Assembly: GCF_000007305.1 (NCBI RefSeq)
Contig: NC_003413.1
Location: forward strand, 707,318-739,317
Direction of reading: 5' to 3'
DNA length: 32,000 nt
From: Pyrococcus furiosus DSM 3638
GTDB lineage: Archaea; Methanobacteriota_B; Thermococci; Thermococcales; Thermococcaceae
Part shown: piece after piece, positions 424-17,401 of the stretch
Layout: each line of letters begins with the position of its first letter
How positions within the stretch are numbered: position 1 is the first letter of the stretch
Program-made: the position numbers and the translations under genes
The notes under the pieces: generated by a model
Seen by the model: only the letters and a program-made list of their open reading frames with translations
Database searches by the model: none
Told to the model about the DNA's origin: nothing

Positions 424-437
424 AAAGGCCGGGAAAC

Positions 438-1253: not shown

Positions 1254-1324
1254 GAGAATCACCTCGTTAAAATTTACCTCTCACTCTTATTAAAATTGTG
1301 AAAAAGGCGGAAAAAGCAGGGGCC

Positions 1325-1678: not shown

Positions 1679-1691
1679 TCAACCACCCCCC

Positions 1692-3002: not shown

Positions 3003-3054
3003 CTAAACTGCCTTTTCCCAGGGCTTAAAAAGGCTTTTTTTGAAGCGTTTTTCA

Positions 3055-3384: not shown

Positions 3385-3386
3385 CT

Positions 3387-3593: not shown

Positions 3594-3750
3594 TAGTATC
3601 ACCAATCTGTGCTTAATGAAGCAGACTTATGGCTCTTATCCTTTTCAAAATGGAAAAATTCTCCTGGGAAAGCTTGACACTCCTGCTCCATGTAAGGTCC
3701 TCCAAGAACTTTTTAAGACAAATCAGTGGAAAATAATTCTGGTGATACCC

Positions 3751-4134
3751 GTGCCGATGGTGATAATTGAGGGCCCAAAGGCAGATGTTGAGACAAAGAG
3801 GGAGCTCGTAAGGAGGATAACCGAGGTTGTTAGAGAAGTCTACAAGGTCCACCACGTGAGCGTCATAATCCATGAGAACGAGACGGAAAACGTTGGCTAC
3901 GATGGCGAGCTTCTCTCAGACATAATAGCGAGGAGAAGGGGGGTAAGCCCCTTCCCTTTACCTTTTACCCCCTGTAGCGGAGGTTTTCTTCAAAGCGCTT
4001 ATCCTCATCCGACCCCACAGGAATCCAACGATAGCAGCAACCATGTTTCCAATTACTATTCCAATCCACACTCCCCTGAGGCCCAGGGTCGTGTAGTGGA
4101 CGAAGATGTAGGCAAAGCCTACCTGCATCACTAG
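3751..4134 (+). CDS. 4-oxalocrotonate tautomerase-family protein whose reading frame runs on past the expected stop
   Basis: GGTGAT lies 4 nt before the GTG at 3751, giving M-P-MVIIEGPKADVETKRELVRRITEVVREV. Pro-1 after Met removal is the tautomerase hallmark. The recognisable domain ends near 3942. The frame then continues 64 codons antisense to the MATE gene. Confidence 0.6.
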   Translation: MPMVIIEGPKADVETKRELVRRITEVVREVYKVHHVSVIIHENETENVGYDGELLSDIIARRRGVSPFPLPFTPCSGGFLQSAYPHPTPQESNDSSNHVSNYYSNPHSPEAQGRVVDEDVGKAYLHH

Positions 4135-5343
4135 CGTCCTGAATATTGTGAGGATTAGGGACTTCTCGCCCTCCCCTATGCCCTGGAACATCGCCGAAGT
4201 CATCATTCCGAAGGGCGTGAGGACGAGAAAGACCGGGAGGGTTCTTAGAGCGCTTATGAGATCTCCCTTTATCACCTGGGCAGATTCCGAGTACGTGAAG
4301 AGGTATGCCACCTGGGGCGCGAAGAGCATTATGAATGCAACAACGGCAAGCTCTATCATGAAGGCGATCTTGATGGCATAGAGATAGGCAGTTTCAAGCT
4401 TCTCTACGTTTCTCTCCCCGTAGGCCGCTCCAGTGACGGATGTGGTCGCGGCCGCCATTCCGAGTATTGGAACTATGCCGAGCATCGTGATTCTCCACGC
4501 GCTCGTGAAGACTGCAACTCCGTTCTCCCCTCCAGCAGTTATGGCGACGCTGTTGAGGAAGAACATCGCTATGGACATCGAGAGCTGGGAGAGCGAGGAA
4601 GGCAGGCCAACCCGGAGGATGTCCTTTAGGATCTCCCTACTCGGTGAGAAGTCTCTAAGGGTTATGTCCACGTAGGTGTCCCGTTTTACGAAGAGCCAGT
4701 AGGCGATGAAGAGAGAGGTCACCACCATGGAGAGCAGCGTCGCGTAGGCCGCTCCGACGACGCCAAAGCCGAGGGTGTAGATAAATATCGGGTCAAGGAC
4801 TATGTTGAGGCCCGAGCCGAGCACCATAGCTAACATGGCCCTGTTGGCGTCTCCCTCTCCCCTAAGGATGCCGTTGCCGACGTTGTTGAAGACTATGATG
4901 AACGCCCCGGCAAGGAGAACCCTAGCATACTCTATGGCCAGCTCGACGGCTTCTCCTTTTGCGCCCATGGAGCGGAAGAGGGAATCTATAGCCGGGAGCA
5001 TTGTGATAGTTATCGTAACTCCAAGGATGAGGGAGAGGATGAGGGAATGGACGGCAACGTTGTCAGCTCCTTCCTTGTCCCTCGCGCCTATCCTTCTCGC
5101 TATCGCGGAGCTCGTGCCCACTCCCAGGCCGGCAGCGAGCGCTATTATGCCCATGAAGACCGGGAAGAAGAGGCCGACAGCCGCAAGCGATTCCGGGCCT
5201 AGGCCCGAGACCCATATTCCATCGGCGAGGTTGTATAGGGTCTGAACCGACATGCCTATCATCATGGGAATCGAGAGCCTGACTATGGCCTTTTTGGGGT
5301 CGCCCCTCAAAAGCTGGACGCCCTTGGTGGTTTTTTCACTCAT
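3958..5343 (-). CDS. MATE-family multidrug/efflux transporter
   Basis: 461 aa and about 12 TM segments. The N-terminus KAIVRLSIPMMIGMSVQTLYNLADGIWV is typical of the MATE/NorM family. Confidence 0.9.
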   Translation of the reverse strand: MSEKTTKGVQLLRGDPKKAIVRLSIPMMIGMSVQTLYNLADGIWVSGLGPESLAAVGLFFPVFMGIIALAAGLGVGTSSAIARRIGARDKEGADNVAVHSLILSLILGVTITITMLPAIDSLFRSMGAKGEAVELAIEYARVLLAGAFIIVFNNVGNGILRGEGDANRAMLAMVLGSGLNIVLDPIFIYTLGFGVVGAAYATLLSMVVTSLFIAYWLFVKRDTYVDITLRDFSPSREILKDILRVGLPSSLSQLSMSIAMFFLNSVAITAGGENGVAVFTSAWRITMLGIVPILGMAAATTSVTGAAYGERNVEKLETAYLYAIKIAFMIELAVVAFIMLFAPQVAYLFTYSESAQVIKGDLISALRTLPVFLVLTPFGMMTSAMFQGIGEGEKSLILTIFRTLVMQVGFAYIFVHYTTLGLRGVWIGIVIGNMVAAIVGFLWGRMRISALKKTSATGGKR

Positions 5344-5382
5344 TCTTCTCCCCCAGTCCTTTTATGGCCTTTCTCAGTAGCT

Positions 5383-5753
5383 TTACAAAACAATCCTTTC
5401 ATCTACACTCATTTCGGCGAAAATCTTTTCATCAAGCTCCTTTCCAGCCTTTGATATTTCTTCGAGCAACTCAAGGCCTTTATTTGTGAGCCTTACCAGG
5501 TAGGTCTTCCCCCTGCGCTCCCTCTCAACAATACCTTTATTTTCAAGAGAGCGGAGAACCTTTGAGGCGGTCGCTTTGGAGACCTTCATGTTTTTTAAAA
5601 GCTACGCCCTGGGTTTTAGCCCTCTCCGAGGTGGATAAGGGCCTTAAACTCCAGGAAGGTTATCCCGATTTTTTCAAGCCTCCCTTCGAAGGCTTTTCGC
5701 ATGAGCCAGTAGAGCTCCGAAATCAGGTCGCAGGGTCTTTCGCTTTTCTGCAT
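5383..5753 (-). pseudogene. MarR-family winged-helix regulator, disrupted by a frameshift plus an in-frame TAG
   Basis: The N-terminal piece (MQKSERPCDLISELYWLMRKAFEGRLEKIGITFLEFKALIHLGEG) stops at 5616. The recognition helix and wing (VSKATASKVLRSLENKGIVERERRGKTYLVRLT) are in the -1 frame. That frame carries a TAG between the two pieces (LKPRA*LLKNMKVSK). Confidence 0.7.
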
Positions 5754-5856
5754 GAGTTTCAATTGAAACCCATGACTTAAAAGTGTTTCTCCAAAGTCCT
5801 CCGCCAGGCTTATAAACCAGTTCTTACACAGGCGCTTCGGTGGTGCAGGAAAGCTC

Positions 5857-6924
5857 ACGGAACTGGTCAGGCGTGAATGGTTTCTCTCACTCCTTGTAGC
5901 CCTTTATGTTGCCCTCTCTATAGTCGATCCCTCCCTCATATCGAACACGCCGCGCTTTATTGACTGGGAAAGCCTGACCTTCATAATGGTCCTCCTCCTC
6001 ACGAGCCGGGCCATTGAGCTCTCGGGAGCTTTCGAATGGGCATCCCTGAAGGCCCTGAAGTTCCCAGGCGGTTCGGAGAGAAGACTTCTCGCACTCTTCA
6101 TCCTCGTAATAGCAGTTTCGTCGGCCATCATAATGAACGACACCGCGATGTTCGTCTTCGTACCGATAGTAGCCATGACGGCGAGGGCCGCAGGGGTGAA
6201 CGTTGCCAAGGCCACAGCCCTCTCAGCCGGTTCCCCCTTACTCCCATGGGCAATCCCCAGAACGTCATCATCTGGCAGACTTACAAACTCGGATTTTTCG
6301 AGTTTGTGTCCTCGATGGCCCCCCCTTCGTGGCTCTCTGGCTGGCTCTTCTCTTACCCTACGTTCTCATAGTCAAAAAGAGGCCCTAAGAAGCCCGCGAG
6401 GAACTCACGATGCACGTCGATAAACCCCTCCCTGCCCTCTCAACGGATCTCCTCGTCCTCAACGTCCTCTTTGCGGAGCTCCACATACAGTACGTGGGAC
6501 TTGCCCTCACGCTAACCTTGGTTTTCCTCTTCGGAAGAAGAGCTTTCTTTGGCTTCGACTGGGCGCTGATACTCACGTTTGCTCTCATCTTCGTGGACTT
6601 CCGGGAACTGTCCATCCTGCTTTCAAAGGTAGGCATCCTTCTCCCGAGGAAAGGAGTGGAGCTCATGCTCTTCTCAGCGGGCATAAGTCAGGTTATCAGC
6701 AACGTTCCGGCCACGGTTCTCCTGCTTCCCTCCGAGCATGAATGGCTCCCCTCTCCCTTGGCGTTAACCTCGGGGGAAACGGAATAATAGTGGGCTCGCT
6801 CGCGAACCTGATAGCCGTGAGGATTGCAGGGGTGAGTATAAAGGACTTTCAGAGGTACTCTCTCCCCTACTTTTTCTTGTCCACGGCAGCAACCGCCGTT
6901 GCTCTTATCCTCATCCCCTTTTGA
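5857..6924 (+). pseudogene. ArsB/NhaD-superfamily anion permease, multiply frameshifted
   Basis: Homologous pieces run in frame 1 (ELVRREWFLSLLVALY...NVAKATAL), frame 3 (LTPMGNPQNVIIWQTYKLGFFEFV), frame 2 (VALWLALLLPYVLIVKKRP, then TAA at 6386), frame 2 again (to 6787) and frame 1 (NLGGNGIIVGSLANLIAVR...ILIPF). Confidence 0.75.
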
Positions 6925-7032
6925 GGGGCCAGCAATCAAAAGCATCGAGATCAAGTCGGGGATTTGCCTTTCAGTATGCGTGATCTTGAGAAAACCCTAT
7001 TAACCCTGCCGGTGAAATTAAAAGGGGATATT

Positions 7033-7497
7033 ATGAAAACGCTCGTCGTTTTCTATTCCCGAAGCGGGACCACTAAGAGAGTGGCTCAAGAGCTCGCGAA
7101 AGCCCTTGGTGCCGACATCGATGAGGTTATAGACAAGAAGTCCCGTAAAGGCATCCTGGGATTTCTTAGAGCTGGTTATGATGCTACGAGAGGCAGGACT
7201 ACTAGAATTGAGTTCACAAAAGATCTCTCAGAATATGACGTGGTTATTATAGGGACTCCGGTATGGAACGGACGAGTAACACCGGCAATTAGGACATATC
7301 TTCTGGAGAATAGAGAAAATATAAAACAAGCTATTTTCTTCGCAACATGTGCTGGGAGACCTGGGAAATGTCTTAAACAGATGGAAGAGATATATGGGGG
7401 CAAAGTCCTCTTAAGGAAGGTCCTCCTAAGAAAAGAACTAGAAAAAGGAATAGAAGAGTTGAAGAGGAATATTGAAAATCCTTATCTTTTGTTGTGA
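7033..7497 (+). CDS. Flavodoxin-family protein
   Basis: MKTLVVFYSRSGTTKRVA matches an FMN phosphate-binding loop, with VVIIGTPVW downstream. A purine-rich stretch precedes the ATG at 7033, so the upstream part of the tracked ORF is probably not coding. Confidence 0.75.
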   Translation: MKTLVVFYSRSGTTKRVAQELAKALGADIDEVIDKKSRKGILGFLRAGYDATRGRTTRIEFTKDLSEYDVVIIGTPVWNGRVTPAIRTYLLENRENIKQAIFFATCAGRPGKCLKQMEEIYGGKVLLRKVLLRKELEKGIEELKRNIENPYLLL

Positions 7498-7763
7498 TTA
7501 AGCCAATTAAGCCCCAGGAGATTATTGCAGTTGTTGATAGGACTATGGCCACAATTTGTCTACTACTCAGTAGCTTTCCGGAGAATGTTTTCAAGCAAGT
7601 CCTTTTCTTTTGTATCTTTCTCCTCCTTCCGAAGAAGGGGGTTCAAAAATATTAACAAAGAAATCAAAATCAGGTGTCCCAACTTCCGTGTTCATATATT
7701 TTCCTTCCCTATGGACCGTCTATACTTCAGACAAAGTAAAGAAGACTCAAAAGTACAGGATTC

Positions 7764-8300
7764 TCATTTGAATCTTTTTCCGAACTCATTATAACTTACT
7801 TTCTCCCACTCAAAGACTTCATTCCCATGAGGTGGCTTATCCTCTGCTGGATAACCTACTCCAATTATACACAGTACTCGGTAGTTTTCGGGAATGTTCA
7901 ACAGTTCCCTTACATACTCTTCAGCCGTTTTGGTTTCATTGTGCATTCTATTCCTTATCTGAACCCAAAAAGAGGCAAGGCCTAGAGCATAAGAAGCTAG
8001 GTGAATATGTTCTGCTGCAATACTTGCATCCTCAATCCACACATCACTTTTGCTCTCATCAGCTGTAACAACTATTGCTACAGGGGCAGTTTTTAGTCCT
8101 GAAGCTCCAAGTTTAGATTTAGACAGGGCCTCAAGCTTTTCCCTGTCATCAACAACTATGAAGTGGCAAGGTCTTTTATTGTAAGAGCTTGGAGAGAGGA
8201 AAGCCGCCTCAAGGAGTTTTTCTATAAGTTCTCTTGGTACAGGTTTATCTTGAAAGCGTCTTATGCTCCGCCTCTTTTTGAGTACTTCAAAGAACTCCAT
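7764..8300 (-). CDS. Nitroreductase-family oxidoreductase
   Basis: MEFFEVLKKRRSIRRFQDKPV is the classic nitroreductase N-terminal motif. GGTGGTGA lies just upstream of the ATG at 8300. Confidence 0.85.
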   Translation of the reverse strand: MEFFEVLKKRRSIRRFQDKPVPRELIEKLLEAAFLSPSSYNKRPCHFIVVDDREKLEALSKSKLGASGLKTAPVAIVVTADESKSDVWIEDASIAAEHIHLASYALGLASFWVQIRNRMHNETKTAEEYVRELLNIPENYRVLCIIGVGYPAEDKPPHGNEVFEWEKVSYNEFGKRFK

Positions 8301-8361
8301 CTTCACCACCGCTAAGATTTATAGCATAACGATTATAAGACTTTTTGAGAACCGATAGACT

Positions 8362-9198
8362 ATGATAGGGTGGATTGGTCTAGGACACATAGGTAGAGCC
8401 ATGGCGGAGAGGTTATCAGAGGAGTATGAACTTCTTGTTTGGAATAGAACAATAGAGAAAGCTAACGGATTCAAAACTGTCGCTAGAACCCCAGAAGAAG
8501 TTGCTGAAAAATGTGATGTGATTTTTCTCTCCCTCTACGACAGCGAGGCAGTGCGGCAAGTTTCCGAGAGACTTCTTAGTGTTAATCTTAGAGGAAAGAT
8601 AATCGTAGATACTACAACGAACCATCACGAGAAAGTCTTGGAGTTCCATGAAATATATAGGAACGTTGGAGCTTTCTACCTCGAAAGCCCTGTTATTGGG
8701 AGCGTCATTCCGGCGAGAAACGGCCAACTGACGATTCTCGTAAGTGGGGAAAGAGAGGCCTTTGAGAGAGTTCGTCCATACCTTCAGAAGCTTGGAAAAA
8801 GGATATTTTACTTTAATGAACCTGGGAAGGCTACTAAGCTTAAGCTAATAAACAACTTTGTGCTTGGAGCCTTCATGGCTGCACTCGGTGAGGCGATAGC
8901 TCTAGGTGAAAAAGCAGGACTATCAAGGGAAGAAATTATAGAAATCCTTGAGAATGGGGCTGGCAATTCAATGGTATTGAGTGCAAAAAAGACTAAGCTT
9001 CTCAATGATGACTACTCGACGCACTTCTCCGTGAAGAACCTCGTCAAGGATCTTTCTTACGCTTACGACTTAGCTGTGGCCTCGAGAAAAGCAGTACCAC
9101 TTAATGCAACGGTGAGGGAGATTTACAGGCTTGCTTTTGAGAAAGGTCTTGAGGAGCTCGACTTTTCGGTGGTGTACAGGCTATTCAGGGAGCTTTAA
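8362..9198 (+). CDS. NAD(P)-dependent beta-hydroxyacid dehydrogenase (3-hydroxyisobutyrate/6-phosphogluconate dehydrogenase-like)
   Basis: It has the IGWIGLGHIGRAMA Rossmann GxGxxG motif, a central GKATKLKLINN segment, and a typical length of 278 aa. Confidence 0.85.
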   Translation: MIGWIGLGHIGRAMAERLSEEYELLVWNRTIEKANGFKTVARTPEEVAEKCDVIFLSLYDSEAVRQVSERLLSVNLRGKIIVDTTTNHHEKVLEFHEIYRNVGAFYLESPVIGSVIPARNGQLTILVSGEREAFERVRPYLQKLGKRIFYFNEPGKATKLKLINNFVLGAFMAALGEAIALGEKAGLSREEIIEILENGAGNSMVLSAKKTKLLNDDYSTHFSVKNLVKDLSYAYDLAVASRKAVPLNATVREIYRLAFEKGLEELDFSVVYRLFREL

Positions 9199-9585
9199 TC
9201 TCCTTTCATATTTTTAAATAAATAACGTAGAGGGACTAGTATTCTTGGAGGTTAAGAAGTTTATTTCCTCCGTAAACTAGAAAATTGATTCAAAAGACCT
9301 AGAAATTTTAGGGTAGAGAGTGATCTCATGGATGAGTGCAACTTCAGGATACATAAGAGTGTCCCTGTGGCGATGAAGATTGGAAAGTATAACTTCCCGG
9401 AAGAAGTGAGAGATATATGACTCCCTCTGCCAGCTCCTCGACCTTATCTGGAGTTCTTTGACTCAAGCTCGAGCCTGCTAGATAAATGGTATCATGCAGA
9501 AAGGTTTATTGGGACTGTTGTCTCTATGGCAAGAAGGGTTACAGCTGTCCCGCTCCGGTTATTTCTAGGGGTTGGGGGTGAGTAG

Positions 9586-10110
9586 ATGTACTACCTCCAC
9601 AACGAATTTAGGAAGAAAATTCAGCCGATTGAACCCCTGGTGGAGCTTATAAGGGAGAGGATTCCAAAAAGGGACATTCTCGTAGATTTTGGAGCTGGGA
9701 CGGGATACTTTACTCTTCCCCTTGCGAAGCTCTTCAGAGAAGTCTATGCAATTGATATAAACGCTGAGAGACTGGAATACCTTAGGAAGAGGCTTAAGGA
9801 AGAGGGGATAACGAACGTAAAGCTAATCCTCGGAGATAAACTACCCGACGTGAAGGCTGATCTGATACTACTCTCAAATGTTATCCACGAGCTCCCAGAG
9901 CCCGAAAAATTCCTTAGAGAAGTGGCTGAAAGGGCTGACTATGTCCTCGTGCTCGACTGGAGGAAAACCTCCACTCCCTGGGGGCCGCCGTTGGAGGAGA
10001 GGATAAGCGAAGAGGAAGCGAGGAAAATGATGGAAGAATACTTTATTGTTGAGGTCTTTAACCTCTATCCCTACCACTACTGCCTACTTGGAACCCGTCG
10101 TTTCCGTTAA
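9586..10110 (+). CDS. Class I SAM-dependent methyltransferase
   Basis: Motif I is ILVDFGAGTGYFT and post-I is EVYAIDIN. GGGGGTGA lies upstream of the ATG. Confidence 0.8.
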   Translation: MYYLHNEFRKKIQPIEPLVELIRERIPKRDILVDFGAGTGYFTLPLAKLFREVYAIDINAERLEYLRKRLKEEGITNVKLILGDKLPDVKADLILLSNVIHELPEPEKFLREVAERADYVLVLDWRKTSTPWGPPLEERISEEEARKMMEEYFIVEVFNLYPYHYCLLGTRRFR

Positions 10111-10118
10111 TTTTTTAT
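10111..10118 (+). terminator. Oligo-T tract right after the methyltransferase stop (possible archaeal terminator)
   Basis: The sequence ttttttat follows the stop codon directly. Confidence 0.3.
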
Positions 10119-10640
10119 CTGTTCAGATGGGAAGGGTCCTTCACGTATCTCACACAGAAAAAACACCTTCGAGTGGACAAAAAAACCTATAATCACCCTC
10201 TACACCAAACAACACTACGAGCTGAACGGGATCTTCCTACCCTATGCTAAAGCATGCCCCATAGTCAAGGATACTGAGCCATACAAACTCCTATCAAGCT
10301 AAGTCGCACAGCAAACGATGAAAATCGTTGAGAGAAACTCCCGCTACATGCTCAACGAGAGAAAGAAGGGAAACTTTTCCGCGACTTCAGACTGTTTAAT
10401 GTCAGAGGTGTAAGGTTCAGTGTTTAATTCTGACACTAAGCCGTATTCTGCTTCTAAGGGTGGTCTCTGGTACTAACGCACTCTAGAGACTTCGCGTTGG
10501 AAGAAGTCAAAGCTGTGCTCCGAGCCAAAGTTAAGACCCATAGATCATGAACAGCATCCAGCTGGAAGGGTTGGAGACCCAATGGACATAGCCCACTTTA
10601 GCTGACAACGAAAAAGCTGGCATAATAACTAAAACAAAAA

Positions 10641-10650
10641 ACTATAAAAA
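10641..10650 (+). promoter_or_regulatory. TATA-box-like element upstream of the heliorhodopsin-like gene
   Basis: The sequence actataaaaa lies about 36-45 nt upstream of the ATG at 10686. This would give a very short leader or a leaderless mRNA. Confidence 0.35.
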
Positions 10651-10685
10651 TATGTTATTGTGTTATATTAAATTATGTGATTTAT

Positions 10686-11429
10686 ATGGGGGACAAGTTC
10701 AAGTCTCTGAAAAGGCTCAACATGATAGCGGGAGTGTTCCACCTGATACAGGGAGTCCTCATACTCCTGCTTTCCAGCGATTTCACCGTTACCATAACCC
10801 GAAACTACCTTAAGTTTGACGAGGCCACGAGGAGCCTCGTGACGGTAACGGAGAACCTCTTTGAGGTCAAGCTGGTGTACCTCATAGCCCTCTTCCCGTT
10901 CCTAACCGCTTTATCCCATCTCGCGGTTTCAACGGTGCTCTTTGAGTCCTACAAGAAGAACCTCTCCAAAGGCATCAATCCCTACCGCTGGGCCGAGTAC
11001 TCAGTGACCTCCTCGATCATGGTGGTCATAATAGCCCTCCTCGTCGGCATCTCGGACATAGGGACTCTCATGCTCATGTTCTCCATCAACGCGGCAATGA
11101 TATTCTTCGGCTACCTCATGGAGCTCCTTAACCAGTACACCGAGAAGGTCAACTGGAGCCCCTTCATCTTCGGCTCCTTCGCGGGGATAATGCCGTGGAT
11201 AGTCATCTTCATGATAATTCTCCGCTCAAACCCGCCGAGCTTCGTGATATGGATATTCGTCAGCATAGCGGTGTTCTTCAACCTCTTCCCGCTCAACATG
11301 GTGCTCCAGTACAAAAAGTGGGGCAAATGGGCGGACTACCTCTACGGAGAGAAGGTTTACATAATACTGAGCTTTGTCTCGAAGACCATACTCGTGTGGC
11401 AGGTCTACGCCGGAACGCTCCAGCCGTGA
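10686..11429 (+). CDS. Heliorhodopsin-like seven-transmembrane protein
   Basis: About 247 aa. From my recollection of characterised heliorhodopsins, it matches along the whole length: NMIAGVFHLIQ, LTALSHL, NPYRWAEYSVTSSIMVV (Glu counter-ion position), GIMPWIVIF, and LQYKKWGKWADYLYGEKVYIILSFVSKTILVWQVYAGTL (Lys at the Schiff-base position). An alternative GTG start lies at 10677. Confidence 0.7.
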   Translation: MGDKFKSLKRLNMIAGVFHLIQGVLILLLSSDFTVTITRNYLKFDEATRSLVTVTENLFEVKLVYLIALFPFLTALSHLAVSTVLFESYKKNLSKGINPYRWAEYSVTSSIMVVIIALLVGISDIGTLMLMFSINAAMIFFGYLMELLNQYTEKVNWSPFIFGSFAGIMPWIVIFMIILRSNPPSFVIWIFVSIAVFFNLFPLNMVLQYKKWGKWADYLYGEKVYIILSFVSKTILVWQVYAGTLQP

Positions 11430-11464
11430 GATTTTTACCCCTTCTTATTTTTGGGTGATTACCG

Positions 11465-11689
11465 ATGGAAGATGAGTACGTTATAAAAGACCTCGACCAG
11501 TTCGTGGAGCTGTGGACGAGCATCTACAACACAGGAGGAAAGCCCGACTGGTCCCACATTCTGCCCTACTACAGCGAGAACATCCACTTCAGGGATAGCA
11601 TACAGGAGATACACGGCATAGAGGAGTTCAAAAAGATGGTGGAAAGACTCACAAAGCGCTCCAAGGAGCTCAAGTTTGTCATAAAGTAA
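11465..11689 (+). CDS. NTF2/SnoaL-like fold protein, probably C-terminally truncated
   Basis: The 74-aa ORF (FVELWTSIYNTGGKPDWSHILPYYSENIHFRDSIQEIHGIEEFKKMVERL) looks like the first half of a SnoaL-like domain of about 130 aa, and then stops. Confidence 0.4.
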   Translation: MEDEYVIKDLDQFVELWTSIYNTGGKPDWSHILPYYSENIHFRDSIQEIHGIEEFKKMVERLTKRSKELKFVIK

Positions 11690-11715
11690 TCCTCCTCGGC
11701 CTTGCGTTCGCCCAC

Positions 11716-12039
11716 ATGGCGCCAATAAAGGTGGAAAACCCCGACGTGCTTGGCGTCCTCCTTACGGCCCTCCTTTGGGCACCCGCCAACGCCTCAAGCG
11801 AGCAGCTCCTCTGGCTCTATATATTCGACTCGTGGGGTCTCTACTCGGAAAAGCCGAAGCTCTCCTACAGACTAATCGGCCTCCTGCTCTTCTCGGCCTA
11901 CGTTAGGATCATACACACCCTGTTCTGGACGAAGTTCCTGCAGGTTGTCGATCCTAAGAGCGTCTTTGGAGTTATCTTCGTGCTCCTCACCACAATATCC
12001 GGCTACCTCCACATTATCGTGTGGCGCAGGTCGGGATAG
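11716..12039 (+). CDS. Hypothetical membrane protein
   Basis: 107-aa ORF with 3 hydrophobic segments. A TAGATG junction links it to a further 29-aa hydrophobic ORF (12040..12129), so it may be one gene split by a stop. Confidence 0.3.
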   Translation: MAPIKVENPDVLGVLLTALLWAPANASSEQLLWLYIFDSWGLYSEKPKLSYRLIGLLLFSAYVRIIHTLFWTKFLQVVDPKSVFGVIFVLLTTISGYLHIIVWRRSG

Positions 12040-12133
12040 ATGGTGTTCACGTTCATACCCCACCTGCTTCTCAACATCGGCCCGCTCCTTTGGACGGGCT
12101 ATAGCATCCTGCCCTATCTCTGGAGGTGATTTT

Positions 12134-12356
12134 ACGTGCCTCTGGTCCCTCCACCCCAAATACCTCGACTCCAAAGGCCTCGTCGCCCTATGGAGGGAGG
12201 GCTTGCTCGCCAAGAAGGTGCTCGAGGGGAAGACGAGGAGCTACAGGAACCATCCCCCAGCTCGAGCGCTTCAAAAACCATCCTGAGCCCCTGAGGGCTA
12301 TAAATGCCTACCTCTACGAGGTGTGGAAGGAGTTGCATAGGGGGCTACCGTTTTGA
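12134..12356 (+). pseudogene. Pyrimidine-dimer DNA glycosylase (Pyr_excise-like) family remnant, with frameshifts and no start codon
   Basis: CLWSLHPKYLDSKGLVALWREGLLAKKVLEGKTRSYRNHP is in frame 2. It continues as QLERFKNHPEPLRAINAYLYEVWKE in frame 3 after a C5 run (12254-12258). A further shift at a G5 run (12340-12344) would give RGYRFD. GGAGGTGAT is followed by ACG where ATG is expected. Confidence 0.6.
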
Positions 12357-12390
12357 CATTAGGAAGATGAGGAGAAGCCTCGTGGAGAAT

Positions 12391-12957
12391 TCAGAGACCT
12401 TCCTCGTTCTCCTTCAGATTTTTCCTCACCTCATCCCTTATCGGCTTTAAAGCCTTCGTGTACTTCTCAAGAGTTTTGAGGAGTCTTTCAACCCTCTCTC
12501 TGTATTTCTCGTCTTTAAGCTCCTCACTCTCAAAGAGATCATCGACGTTGTAAAACAGAACTTGCCCTACGGGGAGCATTTTGTAATTTACTGCCGCTAA
12601 CCTTAACTCTTGGAGAAGTCTTACTCCACCTGTAACTGACGACACTGTGACTATTCCAACAGGTAAGCTCTCATACTCGTCAAATATTGTGTCGAGGAGT
12701 ATCTTGAGCTCTCCTGGATAACTTCCATTATATTCGGGGGCAACTATGGCAAGGGCATCGGCTTCAAGGATTTTTGCCCTATAGCGTTCTATTTCCGGTG
12801 TTACATTCCAGCGGTGGGTATAACAGAGGAGGTAGTCCTTCACATCTATAAGCTCAGCATCCCAACCAAGTTCTTTGGCCTTTTTTGTCAAATATCGAGC
12901 AACTTTCTCACTTTGTCTTCCTTTTCTTGCCGTTCCGAGAATAACTTTGAGCTTCAT
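12391..12957 (-). CDS. NADPH-dependent FMN reductase-family protein
   Basis: It has MKLKVILGTARKGRQSEKVARYL and IVAPEYNGSYPGELKILLD, the conserved PEYN motif of the family. Confidence 0.85.
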   Translation of the reverse strand: MKLKVILGTARKGRQSEKVARYLTKKAKELGWDAELIDVKDYLLCYTHRWNVTPEIERYRAKILEADALAIVAPEYNGSYPGELKILLDTIFDEYESLPVGIVTVSSVTGGVRLLQELRLAAVNYKMLPVGQVLFYNVDDLFESEELKDEKYRERVERLLKTLEKYTKALKPIRDEVRKNLKENEEGL

Positions 12958-13098
12958 GTTATCACCATATGAAATTTCTGATTTTTGAACTTTAAATTTA
13001 TCCTCTCGAAATGAAAAGTTTCGAAATTAAAAACTTTACACTTTGTTAGGACAACCTTTTTAAATTAGGGGAACCTAATTAATGATGGGGTAAACCAA

Positions 13099-13668
13099 AT
13101 GATAAGGGTTGGAGAAGTGGTTCCTGATTTCGAGGCCGATGCTTACTTTCCGGAGAAGGACGAAATAGGAAAGCTCAGGATTTCGGACTACAGAGGCAAA
13201 TGGGTCGTTCTGGCCTTTTATCCAGCGGACTTTACGTTTGTCTGCCCAACGGAGCTTGAGGAGCTCGCTGAGTATTATGAGGAATTCAAGAAGGAAGGAG
13301 CTGAAATAATAAGCGTTTCAACGGACACAGCTTATGTTCACAAAGCTTGGCATGATACTTCACCCGCTATAAAGAAAGTGAGATTTCCGATGCTTGCTGA
13401 TCCTGCTGGAAAGATATGTAGGCTCTTTGGAACATACATTGAAGATGAGGGCATCTCCTGGAGAGCTACCTTCATAATAGATCCTGATGGAAAAGTTGTT
13501 CACATGGAAATGCACGACAACAGCATAGGTAGAAGTGCTAAAGAGATACTCAGAAGGCTTAGGGCCGCTAAATTCGTTCGCGAGAATCCTGGAGTGGTCT
13601 GTCCAGCAAGCTGGGAACCTGGCAAGGAAGCCTTAAAAGTTAGCCTTGATCTTGTTGGGAAAATATGA
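13099..13668 (+). CDS. Peroxiredoxin, AhpC/TSA typical 2-Cys type
   Basis: The peroxidatic motif is FTFVCPTEL and the resolving-Cys motif is VVCPASWEPG. Confidence 0.9.
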   Translation: MIRVGEVVPDFEADAYFPEKDEIGKLRISDYRGKWVVLAFYPADFTFVCPTELEELAEYYEEFKKEGAEIISVSTDTAYVHKAWHDTSPAIKKVRFPMLADPAGKICRLFGTYIEDEGISWRATFIIDPDGKVVHMEMHDNSIGRSAKEILRRLRAAKFVRENPGVVCPASWEPGKEALKVSLDLVGKI

Positions 13669-13690
13669 TTTTCTTTTCTTATTTCTCTTT
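13669..13690 (+). terminator. T-rich tract after the peroxiredoxin stop (possible archaeal terminator)
   Basis: The sequence ttttcttttcttatttctcttt lies directly downstream of the TGA. Confidence 0.3.
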
Positions 13691-14002
13691 ATCGCAAAGA
13701 TGTGTACTTCCAAAGGAAAAACTATTTTGGAGCTAATTTTTAGATCTTGTAAAACGATTTTCCTCCCATATTTTCACTTTTGAAAGTATCATTTTTTAGA
13801 ATATTCAAAATTGGGCATTTTGTTTGGATTAAGTTCTGTAGATGTTCGATATTCGAATTTTAAATATTTGACATGTGAAATTTGTAGGTATTTTAAAAGA
13901 AACCTTTGACTGAGTGGCTCAAAATTTCGAATGTGAAATAGTAGCGTTAATAAACTACCCTAATTATTTTAGAATGTCCTAATAAATTTAGGAGGTGCAA
14001 AA

Positions 14003-14839
14003 ATGATAGGACAGTTTCTAATTACATTTAGAGAAGCATTAGAAGCAGCGATAATTGTTGCTATTATAATTGCCTACCTTAAACGTACTGATAGGGAAGA
14101 GCAAATCAGAGACGTATGGATAGGAGTTGGGTTATCGGTACTTGCTAGCGTAGTTCTAGGTGCAATAATCCTTGGACTTTACGGGGGAATTGAAGAGAAG
14201 GAGCTCTTTGAAGGCATTGCCTCTTACTTAGCTGTTATAGTTTTAACAAGCATGATCTACTGGATGGCTACCAAGGGAAGAAACATTAGAGCTGAAATAG
14301 AAAGGAAGGTAAGCAAGGCTATAAATCCTCTTGCCTTAGTGGGGTTTACCTTTATAGTAGTTTTTAGGGAGGGTCTTGAAACTGTGTTATTCCTTACACC
14401 TTTCGCTATCCAGGACTTGGGAGGAACTTTAATGGGACTTGTAAGTGGTATTATAGGTGCTTTGATTTTAGCGTATCTCATCTACGGTGTTGGGATGAGA
14501 ATAAACCTAAGGACGTTCTTCTACTACAGCTCGATACTGCTCGTTTTCGTTGCTGCTGGATTGGCTGGCTATGGAACTCACGAGCTCATTGAGTGGGCCG
14601 AAGAGGAGGGGATGAACCTCGGCTTTATTGAGGAGACAGCCTACAACCTTGGCATTCCTGAGGATAGTGTGTTCCATCACAAGGGAGTTATTGGTTCAAT
14701 CTTTGCAGTACTCTTTGGCTATTCCGTAAAGATGGAATGGGGAAGAGTGATAGTTCAATTCGGGTACTTAATAGTTACCCTATACCTCGTGCTTAGGGCC
14801 TATGGGCAGGAAACTCCAACCGCAAAGGCCGAGAAATGA
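14003..14839 (+). CDS. FTR1/EfeU-family high-affinity iron permease
   Basis: It has two REXXE motifs (FREALEAA near the N-terminus, FREGLETV mid-protein) and about 7 TM segments. AGGAGGTG lies upstream of the ATG. Confidence 0.85.
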   Translation: MIGQFLITFREALEAAIIVAIIIAYLKRTDREEQIRDVWIGVGLSVLASVVLGAIILGLYGGIEEKELFEGIASYLAVIVLTSMIYWMATKGRNIRAEIERKVSKAINPLALVGFTFIVVFREGLETVLFLTPFAIQDLGGTLMGLVSGIIGALILAYLIYGVGMRINLRTFFYYSSILLVFVAAGLAGYGTHELIEWAEEEGMNLGFIEETAYNLGIPEDSVFHHKGVIGSIFAVLFGYSVKMEWGRVIVQFGYLIVTLYLVLRAYGQETPTAKAEK

Positions 14840-14937
14840 TTGATAATTTCTGAATGAACTCTTTTTCTAGTTTTTTCATTTTGAAATAATAACCCTTATA
14901 GTTTTCTTTTGTAAGAGTTGTTCTGGAGAGTGAAACA

Positions 14938-15522
14938 ATGAAGCTGAAAGCCTTATTTTTATTGCTGGCTTTGGGTAGTTTAATCGTTCCCAGGATAGAG
15001 GCAGAAGAATTTGAGTCATCTAAGGTGCACTTCTACATGTACGGTGCCTACTGGTGTCCCCACTGCCGTAACGTTAAGGAAAGTATAAAGGAACACTTCG
15101 GAGAGGAAACACTAACGTATTATGAAATAGAGGGGGTGGAGCACAACAAAAACAAGTTTGAAGAACTCTATCTGCTAACGGGTATAAGCGGTATTCCTGC
15201 TACGGCTATATTCTATGAGGGGGAAATCTATGCGGTGATAGAGGGAGAATTTGACGTCTCCAAAACATGGCAGATTATAACAGAGGCCAAAAACCAAGGT
15301 GGAGTGATTCTAGTGACCAGCGGTAAAGCATACATTTTGAAATGGGACAGTCAGGAAGTGCAGAAGTTAAAGGAAATCTTTTTGAGTGGAAAAGTGAATG
15401 AAACACAGAAAAAAGCAGAAGAAAAAAGCATATGTGGGCCTGCGAGCGTGCTTCTCCTATCCATGGGTGCGATCTACCTTAGAAAGCGTAATTATTCAAC
15501 AGAAGTGTCCAGTAATGTATAA
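14938..15522 (+). CDS. Secreted thioredoxin-fold protein (CPHC) with a CGP-type C-terminal anchor
   Basis: It has an N-terminal signal peptide and the redox motif YWCPHCRNV. The C-terminus reads SICGPASVLLLSMGAIYLRKR: Cys-Gly-Pro, then a hydrophobic helix, then a basic cluster. Confidence 0.7.
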   Translation: MKLKALFLLLALGSLIVPRIEAEEFESSKVHFYMYGAYWCPHCRNVKESIKEHFGEETLTYYEIEGVEHNKNKFEELYLLTGISGIPATAIFYEGEIYAVIEGEFDVSKTWQIITEAKNQGGVILVTSGKAYILKWDSQEVQKLKEIFLSGKVNETQKKAEEKSICGPASVLLLSMGAIYLRKRNYSTEVSSNV

Positions 15523-15557
15523 AAAGATAAAAACTGATTTATCATTGGTGAGAAAAT

Positions 15558-15950
15558 ATGAATTCAAAAGAATTCAGGAAGATAGCTCTTGTTGGAGCAA
15601 GCAAAAATCCAGCTAAGTATGGTAATATAATTCTAAAAGACCTTCTAAGCAAAGGCTTCGAAGTCCTCCCAGTGAACCCGAACTATGATGAGATTGAAGG
15701 CTTGAAGTGCTACAGAAGCGTGAGGGAGCTTCCGAAGGATGTGGACGTCATCGTCTTCGTTGTCCCACCCAAAGTAGGCTTGCAGGTGGCCAAGGAAGCT
15801 GTTGAAGCAGGCTTCAAAAAACTCTGGTTCCAGCCGGGGGCAGAAAGTGAAGAGATAAGGAGATTCTTAGAGAAAGCTGGAGTTGAGTACAGTTTCGGGA
15901 GATGTATAATGGTAGAAACTAGCAATAAGAAGATTTTTCTGGAGGTATGA
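15558..15950 (+). CDS. CoA-binding domain protein
   Basis: IALVGASKNPAKYGNIILKDLLSKGFEVLPVNP is typical of the CoA_binding_2 family. Confidence 0.85.
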   Translation: MNSKEFRKIALVGASKNPAKYGNIILKDLLSKGFEVLPVNPNYDEIEGLKCYRSVRELPKDVDVIVFVVPPKVGLQVAKEAVEAGFKKLWFQPGAESEEIRRFLEKAGVEYSFGRCIMVETSNKKIFLEV

Positions 15951-15953
15951 AAA

Positions 15954-16328
15954 ATGTTCTATTACGTGAGAAAGTTCAAGGAAGATCTTGACTTTTTATG
16001 GGAGCGCTTCAAGAAAAGGCTTGAAGAGGAGGGCTTTCTCATCATAGGGGAGAGAATTCCTGTGGCGATAGTAGAAAGAGAAGACGGCATTGTCGCGGAT
16101 TATCATCTATTGTTTATATGTGACAAAGAACTCGTGGCAGAGCTCGTGAAGATAAATCCAAATATAGGAGCTCTGCTACCCTGTACGGGCTTTGGTTACC
16201 GGAGAGAGGACGGAAACTACCTCGGGGTTACTTTACCCAGTGTGGCGTGGAAGATAGCGGGTGAGGAAGTGGCTGAGCTCATGAAGCCAATGGAAGAGAG
16301 GATCATCAGAATTATTGAGTCGCTGTAA
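15954..16328 (+). CDS. DUF302-family protein
   Basis: 124 aa. YHLLFICD and ALLPCTGFGY match the DUF302 pattern. It is a paralogue of 1325..1678. Confidence 0.65.
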   Translation: MFYYVRKFKEDLDFLWERFKKRLEEEGFLIIGERIPVAIVEREDGIVADYHLLFICDKELVAELVKINPNIGALLPCTGFGYRREDGNYLGVTLPSVAWKIAGEEVAELMKPMEERIIRIIESL

Positions 16329-16640: not shown

Positions 16641-16756
16641 GCCTTTTTAATCTTTTCTGCGTTATGATTGCCTAATGAAACCAGCCAATTCTGGAGAAGC
16701 TTAAAAGAGAGGAGAACAATATCCCATTGGGAGCCTGATGCCGTTTTTATGTTTTG

Positions 16757-17398
16757 ATGAAAGTCCTCGAATCTGCACCGAGCAGGTACGATAGGGGGAT
16801 CCGGATCATCACACTGGGGAAGCTCGATGAAGCATACGACCGGCTGACCTCCCGCATAAAGCCCGGCCAAAGGGTTCTTGACGTTGGATGCGGTACGGGG
16901 GCATTAACGCTAAGGGCCGCCCTGAGGGGTGCGAGGGTTAAGGCCATTGATATCAACCCCCAGATGCTTGAAATCGCACGAAAGAGGGTTGAAGAGGCGG
17001 GAGTCACGGGAATGGTCGAGCTGTGCGAGATGGGGGTTGCCGAACTCAACACCGAAGCATCGGAGGGCTACGATGCCGTGATGGCGGGCCTCTGCTTCTC
17101 CGAGCTGACCGAAGATGAGTTAAGCTACGCCCTTAGGGAGATTAAAAGAGTGTTAAAGCCCGGGGCACTCCTCCTTATTGCGGACGAAGCGGTGCCAGAG
17201 AGCCCCGTAAAGAGAGTTCTTTCGTGGCTGATAAGGGCCCCGCTCGCCGTTATCGCCTACCTCCTAATCCAGACCACAACGAGGGCCGTAAAGAACCTGC
17301 CCGAAAAGCTTGGGGAAGAGGGATTCCTGATAGAGTCCGTGAGACGGAGCTTTATGGAAGATTTCGTGGAGATTGTGGCGAGAAAACCCGGGAGATGA
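16757..17398 (+). CDS. Class I SAM-dependent methyltransferase with a C-terminal hydrophobic segment
   Basis: Motif I is VLDVGCGTGALTLRAA and post-II is LKPGALLLIADE. A hydrophobic stretch (LSWLIRAPLAVIAYLLIQ) follows. The stop lies 3 nt before the next gene's start. Confidence 0.8.
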   Translation: MKVLESAPSRYDRGIRIITLGKLDEAYDRLTSRIKPGQRVLDVGCGTGALTLRAALRGARVKAIDINPQMLEIARKRVEEAGVTGMVELCEMGVAELNTEASEGYDAVMAGLCFSELTEDELSYALREIKRVLKPGALLLIADEAVPESPVKRVLSWLIRAPLAVIAYLLIQTTTRAVKNLPEKLGEEGFLIESVRRSFMEDFVEIVARKPGR

Positions 17399-17401
17399 GC
17401 C

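Follow-up and report, generated by a model that had tools for sequence, protein, structure and literature searches.

An intact heliorhodopsin gene in a decayed, Thermococcus-derived patch of the Pyrococcus furiosus genome

The open reading frame at positions 10686-11429 (forward strand) of the window, the 32,000-nucleotide stretch of Pyrococcus furiosus DSM 3638 DNA that was analysed, encodes an intact, full-length heliorhodopsin (HeR) of 247 amino acids. Profile match, fold and key residues identify the protein as a genuine member of the family, and its gene is carried by a Thermococcus-derived foreign patch whose remaining genes are all decayed; the latter is what is added here. The protein is an exact match to P. 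furiosus PF0718 (WP_011011843.1), to which RefSeq and UniRef have already given the name "heliorhodopsin HeR". Its identity was known, and the identification itself adds nothing new. The preliminary description of this DNA, made from the letters alone, correctly recognised an intact heliorhodopsin gene in a hyperthermophilic host of the Thermococcales type, but the novelty it implied is reduced, since the name exists and an orthologue has been purified with retinal.

Family membership, key residues and fold

Translation of the reading frame can start at GTG 10677 or at ATG 10686 and ends at the stop codon 11427-11429, with the ATG form giving the 247-residue protein. The profile search proposed in the preliminary description was carried out, and PF0718 matched the heliorhodopsin Pfam family PF18761 with 325.9 bits (E = 1.8e-97; cutoff 26.7) over model positions 1-242 of 242. 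The NCBIfam HeR equivalog NF038020 was matched with 335.4 bits (E = 2e-100; cutoff 100).

TaHeR from Thermoplasmatales archaeon SG8-52-1 (PDB 6IS6, 7U55) matched at E = 2e-75 (6is6) and was 50% identical to PF0718 in structural alignment; its source is an uncultured archaeon known from a metagenome bin and not a cultured hyperthermophile. HeR 48C12 from a freshwater actinobacterium (PDB 6SU3, 6UH3) matched at E ≈ 6e-54 with a TM-score of ~0.9 and 41% identity. The three proteins differ in the A-B loop, where the polar motif is YDEI in TaHeR and FDEA in PF0718 while 48C12 has GPPG-type chemistry, and in the helix E-F loop, which is one residue shorter in PF0718 than in TaHeR and longer in 48C12 than in PF0718.

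The four motifs in which functionally critical residues had been proposed were located at GVFHLIQ 16-22 (H19), LSHL 76-79 (H78), RWAEYS 101-106 (E104) and SFVSKTILVWQ 229-239 (K233). In the alignments, H19, H78, R101, E104, E222, K233 and W238 of PF0718 correspond to H23, H82, R105, E108, E227, K238 and W243 of TaHeR, and the two histidines, the counter-ion glutamate and the Schiff-base lysine correspond to H23, H80, E107 and K241 of 48C12 (published numbering taken from PMC9385722). All seven residues are invariant across 47 aligned homologues. K233 occupies the Schiff-base position in helix G (TaHeR K238, 48C12 K241), so that the misplaced lysine named beforehand as grounds for rejecting the assignment was not encountered. 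E104 in helix C is the equivalent of the single glutamate counter-ion, and the pair H19 and H78 as well as R101 with E222 are the equivalents of the H23/H82 and R105-E227 pairs that line the Schiff-base cavity of TaHeR.

The AlphaFold2 model of PF0718 (pLDDT 93.9) revealed seven helices and the long A-B-loop β-hairpin of a heliorhodopsin (strands 34-45 and 50-62). A Foldseek comparison with TaHeR gave TM-scores of 0.95-0.96 at an rmsd of 1.0-1.4 Å, the best match being 6is6 (0.96, 1.0 Å). Lysine and arginine number 13 (net charge +8) on the side of the N-terminus and the B-C, D-E and F-G loops versus 4 (net −2) on the opposite face; judged by the positive-inside rule, which is a rule of thumb, this distribution fits an inverted topology with a cytoplasmic N-terminus.

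Type-1 rhodopsins (bacteriorhodopsin, sensory rhodopsin II and KR2) share the seven-transmembrane retinal-protein fold and a lysine in helix G with PF0718; their identity to it is 10-16%, their TM-scores are only 0.5-0.65, and their membrane orientation would be opposite, as judged by charge. The Bac_rhodopsin Pfam profile gave no match to PF0718 at E ≤ 1. A type-1 rhodopsin was ruled out on these grounds.

The foreign patch and its decayed genes

The features of the locus are as follows.

9462-9578: AsnC-type regulator relic, upstream of PF0717
9586..10110, + strand: class I SAM methyltransferase (PF0717), flank
10339..10629, + strand: SDR (adh_short) relic, annotated as pseudogene PFDSM3638_03555 'oxidoreductase'; traced by blastn, tblastn and alignment
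10638..10685, + strand: putative archaeal promoter and 5' leader, very AT-rich (GC 0.22)
10686..11429, + strand: heliorhodopsin CDS (PF0718 / PFDSM3638_03560), 247 aa, intact, with H19, H78, R101, E104, E222, K233 and W238
11465..11689, + strand: SnoaL/NTF2-like gene (PF0719), truncated to aa 1-74 of 148
11686..12129, + strand: relic of a 230-aa multi-pass membrane protein without Pfam family (PF0720), aa 84-230 only
12140..12408, + strand: pyrimidine-dimer DNA glycosylase (Pyr_excise, PF03013) pseudogene, frameshifts at ~12255 and ~12342
12391..12957, − strand: NADPH-dependent FMN reductase (PF0721), native flank, GC3 0.44
13099..13668, + strand: peroxiredoxin (AhpC/TSA family, PF0722), native flank, GC3 0.43

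The HeR gene (GC 0.52, GC3 0.79) is part of a compositionally foreign patch of ~2 kb, in which the adjacent relics have a GC3 of 0.73-0.76, against 0.35-0.50 for native genes. At the nucleotide level, HeR is 95% identical to a Thermococcaceae MAG (locus L002) and 92% identical to both Thermococcus sp. 2319x1 and T. stetteri. Composition and identity indicate that the patch is a recent import into P. furiosus from a high-GC Thermococcus lineage. Vertical inheritance was considered, as the divergence of HeR from that of the related locus L017 (81% nucleotide identity) resembles that of the native flanks (79-86%); it was ruled out because GC3 values of 0.73-0.79 stand against 0.35-0.50 and because identity to the Thermococcaceae MAG reaches 93-95%. 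The window showed no tRNA and no obvious site of integration.

The SDR relic retains approximately residues 125-229 of 261 and carries internal deletions of 11 bp and ~58 bp. Its segment 10484-10596 is 88-89% identical to L001 and L002 (blastn), and an intact counterpart immediately precedes HeR in Thermococcus sp. 2319x1, T. stetteri and the MAGs. On the other side of HeR, PF0719 shares 90.5% amino acid identity with the 148-aa protein encoded next after HeR in L017, and its stop lies at a deletion junction. The junction at 11686 marks a deletion of ~4 kb relative to the intact L017 cluster, which took the C-terminal half of the SnoaL protein, a second SDR (SDR315), an FAD oxidoreductase, a Rieske oxygenase and the 5' end of PF0720. 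The PF0720 relic (93% to L002, blastn) contains an in-frame stop at 12037-12039, and the Pyr_excise pseudogene has lost its 3' end where it runs into the native FMN-reductase gene. This analysis thus recovered the GC-rich block of damaged genes that had been described from the letters, the SDR, SnoaL, membrane-protein and Pyr_excise genes all being damaged.

Immediately before the HeR start, a BRE/TATA-like motif, AAAACTATAAAAATA, was located at 10638-10652 and a Shine-Dalgarno-like GTGAT at 10677-10681 (P. furiosus promoter consensus from PMC6640164). A three-way alignment revealed the position of both motifs, and the spacing of the BRE/TATA-like one, to be kept in the Thermococcus loci, and 10638-10685 is the probable promoter and 5' leader of HeR. 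Table 4 of PMC6640164 places HeR and PF0719 in one operon, as an in-silico prediction only.

Related loci and selection on the heliorhodopsin

A recurrent cluster in the order SDR – HeR – SnoaL – SDR – FAD oxidoreductase – Rieske oxygenase – membrane protein – pyrimidine-dimer glycosylase was found to be intact in L017. The pair of AsnC-type regulator and SAM methyltransferase also flanks the cluster in L016 and L017, and the peroxiredoxin/FMN-reductase pair also lies near it in L016, L017 and T. zilligii. HeR is the sole gene that is intact in all Thermococcales-type loci (8/8). In P. furiosus every cluster partner is truncated, deleted or frameshifted, including the SDR, the most constant neighbour of HeR, and independent losses are evident from Rieske relics in 2319x1 and a frameshifted Pyr_excise gene in T. 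stetteri. The T. stetteri locus was taken via P0003, leaving out P0004 (the RefSeq form of T. stetteri) and P0014 (Thermococcus sp. P6). A scan of genome contigs returned only 9 loci, with the named Thermococcus carriers not among them, which makes it unfit for counts of carriers and non-carriers.

The association with the Rieske, 230-aa and Pyr_excise genes was also considered as a general trait of heliorhodopsins. None of these genes was found by tblastn beside the HeRs of L008-L014 (Thermoplasmata, Methanomassiliicoccales, Saccharimonadales and actinobacterial loci), and among the loci searched the association is confined to those of the Thermococcales type.

Pairwise dN/dS values of HeR were 0.06-0.15 across the Thermococcales-type clade, which supports purifying selection on the predicted protein at this level; to that extent the earlier suggestion that the gene is maintained by selection was borne out. 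The branch leading to P. furiosus carries 3.5 nonsynonymous and 5.5 synonymous changes (binomial P 0.006-0.03); this test comprises only 9 substitutions, and the branch includes time in the donor lineage. No disabling lesion was observed in HeR, whereas at the density of lesions seen in the neighbouring relics 3.1 would be expected, a marginal difference (P = 0.046).

These results bear on the possibility that PF0718 is an orphaned passenger, a foldable heliorhodopsin without function in P. furiosus and the last unhit piece of a decaying import. The pseudogene state of all other patch genes, the recency of the import (95% identity to the MAG, unameliorated GC3 of 0.79), the marginal lesion-density test and the 9 events of the branch test would all agree with it. 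Since every cluster partner is dead, the SDR included, the protein may have nothing left to regulate in P. furiosus. Likewise, reports on PF0718 expression, proteomics or phenotype were not found, nor was a paper tying heliorhodopsin to Pyrococcus. Against a passenger stand the survival of HeR alone in 8/8 loci, several lineages having independently shed its partners, the skew of P. furiosus-branch changes towards synonymous sites, and a promoter motif that was kept despite deletions immediately upstream. We regard loss of function as unlikely, albeit with enough in its favour to be taken seriously.

Chromophore, habitat and possible role

The HeR of Thermococcus sp. 2319x1 (TcHeR/NTH) is 92.3% identical to PF0718 at the amino acid level; both have 247 residues and belong to the same 90% cluster. 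None of the 19 substitutions between them falls on a column that is invariant across the 47 homologues, and they have in common the A-B-loop motif FDEA44-47 and the colour-tuning residues M145, M205 and S232. When the 2319x1 protein was produced at 35 °C in E. coli supplied with all-trans-retinal, the purified pigment had an absorbance maximum of 530 nm (Kim et al. 2021, Sci Rep, PMC7807009). Given this degree of identity and the same tuning residues, absorption at ~530 nm is predicted for PF0718. The preliminary description would have abandoned its assignment for a purified protein that does not bind retinal, an objection answered by an orthologue and not by PF0718 itself. PMC7807009 gives no thermal or temperature data on 2319x1 HeR, and passages from its Methods describe absorption spectroscopy only; photocycle or transport data for Thermococcales HeRs were not found in the literature.

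The two hosts differ in growth optimum (85 °C for 2319x1, ~100 °C for P. furiosus) and in the setting of the gene. In 2319x1, the SDR directly upstream of HeR is intact and the locus lies beside a glycine-betaine-type ABC transporter, whereas the P. furiosus patch retains an SDR relic only and lies between the methyltransferase and the FMN reductase/peroxiredoxin pair.

None of the carotenoid and retinal genes crtB, crtI, crtY and blh was found in the window around HeR, which within these limits does not belong to an opsin-linked carotenoid/retinal cluster. P. furiosus is a strict anaerobe, whereas retinal formation by the known Blh route depends on O2. No retinal source is known in this organism, and its laboratory cultures, grown in the dark, have no known defect; both points count against a sensor at work in P. 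furiosus. The missing retinal pathway pointed out in the preliminary description is a real puzzle, but it is not peculiar to Thermococcales: heliorhodopsin genomes are generally without blh, and the puzzle has been described for HeR hosts at large. The description had further spoken of vent organisms. The assignment to Thermococcales stands, but the implied darkness does not, as the documented origins of three named HeR carriers are beach sediments (P. furiosus), a tidal-zone vent (Thermococcus sp. 2319x1) and a marine solfataric field in a cove (T. stetteri).

A chromophore-independent role, in which the apoprotein has a dark function as membrane scaffold or partner regulator or binds a non-retinal ligand, would explain a heliorhodopsin in an organism without a retinal pathway. 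The general lack of blh, the anaerobic host and the fact that heliorhodopsins work through protein-protein contacts all lean this way. However, the invariance of the Schiff-base lysine, the counter-ion glutamate and the cavity His, Arg, Glu and Trp residues is hard to explain without retinal, the 92.3% identical orthologue binds it, and the documented carriers come from beach, tidal-zone and cove sites. Such a role is considered quite improbable.

The most likely role of PF0718 is that of a retinal-scavenging sensor for photo-oxidative/UV stress. PF0718, a seven-transmembrane heliorhodopsin, would have inverted topology and hold all-trans-retinal through a Schiff-base link to K233, E104 acting as the counter-ion. 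Its gene reached P. furiosus recently on a fragment of ~2 kb from a larger Thermococcus cluster; in P. furiosus the partners have decayed, while the reading frame of HeR stayed open and its critical residues and TATA-like promoter motif were retained. In sunlit shallow water or beach sediment, the apoprotein may pick up retinal from algal or plant debris; the loaded protein would absorb green light (~530 nm), enter the slow heliorhodopsin photocycle and modulate a partner protein by direct contact, which could prime the defence against photo-oxidative and UV stress. For the explanation as a whole, an imported genuine HeR that still serves P. furiosus in this way, we see the chances as about even.

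Direct binding is the mode of action demonstrated for heliorhodopsins, with glutamine synthetase, photolyase and the OmrDE ABC transporter as partners (Cho et al. 2022, 2024; Shim et al. 2022), and the SDR is a recognised partner group. Relatives of PF0718 likewise show an operon-like link with an SDR, a group counted among the ten recurrent partners, as well as with a UV-repair enzyme, and light-dependent protein-protein modulation is the presumed shared mode. In contrast to these regulatory HeRs with proven partners, the linked candidate partners of PF0718 are all pseudogenes in P. furiosus, and the UV-repair neighbour of the Thermococcales-type HeRs is a pyrimidine-dimer glycosylase and not a photolyase. 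Genes for peroxiredoxin, FMN reductase, rubrerythrin, SOR, ferritin, FUR and the UV-repair glycosylase abound in the surroundings of the Thermococcales-type HeRs, which matches both published HeR contexts and the photo-oxidative-stress model. The conserved sensor in an eroding cluster, its repeated adjacency to peroxiredoxin, FMN reductase and rubrerythrin and the sites of the carriers support this model.

Light-driven or light-gated ion transport that aids membrane energetics, as in some giant-virus HeRs, was weighed against the sensor model. Viral heliorhodopsins are reported, in work cited by other papers, to transport protons. PF0718, however, groups with TaHeR and other prokaryotic HeRs (~50-55% identity), HeRs of its kind are described in the literature as having no confirmed proton pumping and as releasing no protons, and its operon-like context is typical of regulatory HeRs, while the viral proton-transporting HeRs are without such neighbours. 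Ion transport is accordingly very hard to credit here.

P. furiosus is genetically tractable (strain COM1) and offers a model with a lone HeR stripped of its linked partners, which suits the largely open physiology of heliorhodopsins. If the sensor works, the organism would be a clean system for what a heliorhodopsin does alone. As P. furiosus is putatively among the most thermophilic retinal-protein hosts, the stability and photocycle of the pigment at 80-100 °C would be of biophysical interest.

A more far-reaching proposal is that Thermococcales-type HeRs are working light sensors at 85-100 °C in strict anaerobes, and that the gene set travelling with them is an undescribed module for blh-independent chromophore synthesis or light-triggered photoprotection; we consider this rather improbable. 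The candidate module consists of a SnoaL/NTF2-like protein, a POR/RDH-like SDR, a distant CrtI-superfamily FAD oxidoreductase, a Rieske oxygenase, the unclassified 230-aa membrane protein and the pyrimidine-dimer glycosylase.

The FAD enzyme of L017 scored 75-82 bits on models of the CrtI family and carotenoid isomerases (cutoffs 238-640), and its PDB match to a carotene desaturase does not extend beyond the FAD-binding N-terminus. With scores so far below the cutoffs and a PDB match to the dinucleotide-binding motif, the enzyme as a phytoene desaturase or carotenoid isomerase, and the cluster as a retinal pathway, were rejected and are retained as a lead only. For the Rieske enzyme, the resemblance is to O-/N-demethylase-type monooxygenases. 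A blh-independent route to retinal, as postulated by others, could be sought in the intact cluster of the uncultured relatives.

Identity and predicted structure of PF0718

Re-reading of the + strand in the window placed the start of PF0718 (locus tag PFDSM3638_03560) at GTG 10677 or ATG 10686 and the stop at 11427-11429, giving 247 aa from the ATG, and confirmed the coordinates and the heliorhodopsin (HeR) assignment of the preliminary description. The protein matched Pfam family PF18761 end to end (325.9 bits, gathering score 26.7, model positions 1-242 of 242) and the NCBI HeR equivalog model NF038020 with 335.4 bits (cutoff 100). The top matches among solved structures were TaHeR, a Thermoplasmatales HeR (6is6, E = 2e-75), and the freshwater actinobacterial HeR 48C12 (E ≈ 6e-54).

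All four motifs previously proposed were present, namely GVFHLIQ (H19), LSHL (H78), RWAEYS (E104) and SFVSKTILVWQ (K233). In alignments to the solved HeRs, renumbered according to PMC9385722, H19, H78, R101, E104 and E222 corresponded to H23, H82, R105, E108 (counter-ion) and E227 of TaHeR, and K233 and W238 to K238 (retinal Schiff base) and W243, revealing the Schiff-base lysine to be correctly placed. The 48C12 counterparts of H19, H78, E104 and K233 were H23, H80, E107 and K241. These seven PF0718 residues did not vary among 47 aligned homologues with identity down to ~50%.

The AlphaFold2 model (pLDDT 93.9) comprised seven helices and the characteristic A-B β-hairpin and superposed on TaHeR with a TM score of 0.96 and an rmsd of 1.0 Å, whereas type-1 rhodopsins reached only TM 0.5-0.65 at 10-16% identity. 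As a rule of thumb, the loop charges (13 K+R versus 4 on the opposite side) fit the family-defining cytoplasmic N-terminus. Since HMM matches, aligned residues and predicted fold agree, PF0718 is, on the features testable in silico, a member of the HeR family.

The sequence is identical to AAL80842.1/WP_011011843.1 of P. furiosus DSM 3638 and is the same in strain COM1. In RefSeq and UniRef it already bears the name "heliorhodopsin HeR"; the 2019 re-annotation of P. furiosus still listed a "hypothetical protein". Other members of its 90% cluster derive from Thermococcus sp. 2319x1, T. stetteri and Thermococcaceae metagenome-assembled genomes (MAGs). The 2319x1 HeR was expressed in E. coli with all-trans-retinal, purified, found to absorb at 530 nm and mutated at M145, M205, S232 and the FDEA44-47 loop motif (PMC7807009). 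PF0718 carries these residues at identical numbers and is 92.3% identical to that protein, with none of the 19 substitutions at columns invariant across the 47 homologues. Of the two refuting conditions named in the preliminary description, a misplaced lysine is contradicted by the alignment, and a lack of retinal binding by the behaviour of this near-identical orthologue; PF0718 itself would be expected to bind retinal.

The identification of PF0718 as a HeR is already known, because the protein is annotated as such and a close orthologue has been characterised. A literature search found no paper on the P. furiosus HeR gene or its physiology. To this the present work adds an origin by horizontal transfer, a reconstruction of the accessory cluster that has decayed, the recurrent oxidative-stress neighbours, the habitat pattern and tests for selection, which refine existing hypotheses and reveal no new kind of system.

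A foreign patch with decayed neighbours

The GC3 of the HeR gene was 0.79 and that of the two downstream ORFs 0.73 and 0.76, compared with 0.35-0.50 for native genes of the window. Nucleotide identity over 10677-11435 was 95% to the Thermococcaceae MAG locus L002 and 92% to 2319x1 and T. stetteri; 11686-12372 was 93% identical to L002, and 10484-10596 matched, at 88-89% identity, the 3' portion of the SDR gene preceding HeR in these genomes. Gene content was resolved by tblastn with proteins of intact relatives.

Gene content of the patch and its native flanks (window positions)
10339-10629: SDR relic; aa ~125-229 of 261 left, with internal deletions
10686-11429, + strand: PF0718, intact HeR
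After HeR: PF0719, SnoaL/NTF2-like gene; first 74 of 148 codons, 90.5% identical to the uncultured relative L017
11686-12129: PF0720, relic of a 230-aa membrane-protein gene; starts at codon 84, joined directly at 11686
Pyr_excise (pyrimidine-dimer DNA glycosylase) gene: two frameshifts, 3' end lost
Native flanks: methyltransferase on one side; FMN reductase, peroxiredoxin, FTR1 and CoA-binding protein on the other

PF0720 additionally carries an in-frame stop at 12037. Relative to L017, the junction at 11686 is a ~4-kb deletion of a stretch that holds the remaining SnoaL gene, a 315-aa SDR, a 527-aa FAD oxidoreductase, a 321-aa Rieske/VanA_C oxygenase and the start of the membrane-protein gene. 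The native flank proteins share 79-92% aa identity with homologues in L017 and in L016, a further uncultured relative. The earlier picture of a GC-rich block in which an intact HeR stands among truncated or frameshifted genes was thus accurate, as evident from GC3 and the tblastn relics.

A further trace of gene decay at this locus lies immediately upstream of the methyltransferase PF0717, at 9462-9578, where 39 codons of an AsnC/Lrp-type regulator survive (51% identical to the C-terminal end of its L017 counterpart). Two more foreign-looking blocks, at 46-6787 and 16754-20639, had a GC of 0.49-0.57 and a GC3 of 0.60-0.74 (native 0.35-0.50). The former encodes an M24 peptidase fragment, DUF302, a DsbD-like protein and a MatE transporter, with ORFs of lower GC3 (0.45-0.54) at ~3098-4134; the latter encodes a methyltransferase, a CdhD/4Fe-4S protein, an unclassified 310-aa ORF and an ABC ATPase. 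Both may be further Thermococcus-derived imports.

The HeR cluster in relatives

Gene order at the compared loci
T. stetteri (L018): OpuA-type ABC transporter – SDR – HeR – Rieske – 229 aa – Pyr_excise (last apparently frameshifted in a draft genome; 8480-8900)
MAG loci L002-L005: order as in T. stetteri; 230-aa gene of L002 with an in-frame stop
Thermococcus sp. 2319x1 (L001): SDR – HeR, then only three Rieske oxygenase fragments (10791-11143)
T. zilligii: HeR – Rieske, adjoining peroxiredoxin and FMN-reductase fragments
L016: Cyt-b5 – HeR – (FAD relic) – Rieske – 230 aa – Pyr_excise – SDR (6001-9062)
L017: fullest cluster, with intact SnoaL – SDR – FAD inserted after HeR, then Rieske, 230 aa and Pyr_excise, likewise intact (5355-11182)
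L007 (MAG binned as Pseudothermotoga, GC 0.40): HeR – SnoaL – SDR – FAD (8001-11818)

HeR was the sole gene intact in every compared locus, the losses of its partners being different and independent. Oxidative-stress genes abound nearby (peroxiredoxin, FMN reductase, rubrerythrins, SOR, rubredoxin, NROR, ferritin/encapsulin and FUR).

Accessory genes appeared to be eroding in the cultured isolates, Pyr_excise in T. stetteri and the Rieske gene in 2319x1, and sequencing errors in the draft assemblies may contribute to this picture. Both genes are apparently full-length in L002, L016 and L017. The in-frame stops of the 230-aa gene differ in position between P. furiosus and L002 (11813-12500); the gene is intact in T. 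stetteri (L018 7819-8508), L016 and L017. A family search with its product gave no Pfam match; by eye, conserved E, H and HxxxN motifs are reminiscent of CPBP-type intramembrane proteases. The order AsnC – methyltransferase – FMN reductase – peroxiredoxin – FTR1 – CoA-binding protein is conserved around the HeR cluster in P. furiosus (9462-16328), L016/L017 and T. zilligii, with the cluster differing in position and orientation in each of the three, which points to either a recombination hot spot or a functional link to the peroxiredoxin/FMN-reductase pair. HeRs 70-80% identical to the Thermococcales type also occur in bacterial-looking contexts, in L007, in L019 (directly after the gene of the bacterial replication protein PriA) and in L020 (after a priA C-terminal fragment), suggesting inter-domain transfer of this subclade among thermophiles.

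The accessory cluster was considered as a carotenoid/retinal pathway and rejected, because its enzymes are of generic type, the Rieske protein being similar to O-/N-demethylase-type monooxygenases and the long SDR to POR-like SDRs, with the FAD protein showing only sub-threshold similarity to the CrtI/carotenoid-isomerase superfamily. Nor is P. furiosus unusual in having no known retinal pathway; blh is rare in HeR genomes generally, and an as yet unknown route to retinal has been proposed. On these grounds, the intact L017-type cluster is a candidate for chromophore supply or photoprotection. A chromophore-independent role of PF0718, set against the absorbance of the 2319x1 orthologue, is improbable.

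Selection and probable role of PF0718

Pairwise dN/dS among six Thermococcales-type HeRs was 0.06-0.15; between P. furiosus and the MAG HeR, 8.5 nonsynonymous and 24.5 synonymous differences were counted. When changes were polarised with outgroups, the P. furiosus branch carried 5.5 synonymous and 3.5 nonsynonymous changes, at a neutral expectation of ~78% nonsynonymous (binomial P 0.006-0.03). The adjacent relics hold three disabling point lesions in 723 bp, so that ~3.1 would be expected in HeR, where none was observed (P = 0.046). The BRE/TATA-like motif AAAACTATAAAAATA at 10638-10652 and a GTGAT Shine-Dalgarno-like motif are spaced as they are in the Thermococcus loci, despite deletions just upstream that removed the SDR 3' end. 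These data favour maintenance of HeR by selection, as had been proposed from its intactness, and fall short of proof because the branch-specific numbers are small. The main rival is that PF0718 is an orphan in P. furiosus, simply not yet decayed like its neighbours, which we regard as possible and less likely than not.

Four of five synonymous changes on the branch were G/C to A/T, as amelioration in an AT-rich host would give. The 86 bp directly upstream of HeR (10600-10685) are homologous to the Thermococcus intergenic region and heavily AT-shifted (GC 0.22 versus ~0.5 in the coding patch); together these suggest ongoing amelioration.

Heliorhodopsins bind all-trans-retinal and have slow photocycles. 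Those of known function bind and modulate glutamine synthetase, photolyase or the OmrDE ABC transporter, and the ten recurrent operon partners include SDR-family oxidoreductases and photolyases (PMC11109279). Ion transport by PF0718 is very improbable. Carotenoid and UV-repair genes often flank archaeal HeRs, which led to the proposal that HeRs sense light and trigger photo-oxidative defence (PMC8612252, PMC9585477). AhpC/TSA antioxidants are frequent neighbours as well. The Thermococcales cluster, with its UV-lesion glycosylase, O2-dependent redox enzymes and peroxide/iron-defence genes, fits this model.

The best explanation, to which we give about an even chance, is that PF0718 was imported from a Thermococcus, that its apoprotein would scavenge retinal and sense green light, and that it would signal through protein contact, thereby priming photo-oxidative and UV defence. 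A sensor working at ~100 °C together with a new chromophore or photoprotection module is unlikely. In practical terms, P. furiosus is of interest as a tractable hyperthermophile whose heliorhodopsin stands alone, and the intact accessory cluster of the uncultured relatives is worth testing for blh-independent chromophore supply.

Where the origin of a carrier is documented, it is a beach, tidal or cove setting: P. furiosus was obtained from sediments of the beach at Porto di Levante, strain 2319x1 from a tidal-zone vent receiving algal and plant debris, and T. stetteri from a cove with a marine solfataric field. The source of T. zilligii is a terrestrial hot pool in New Zealand.
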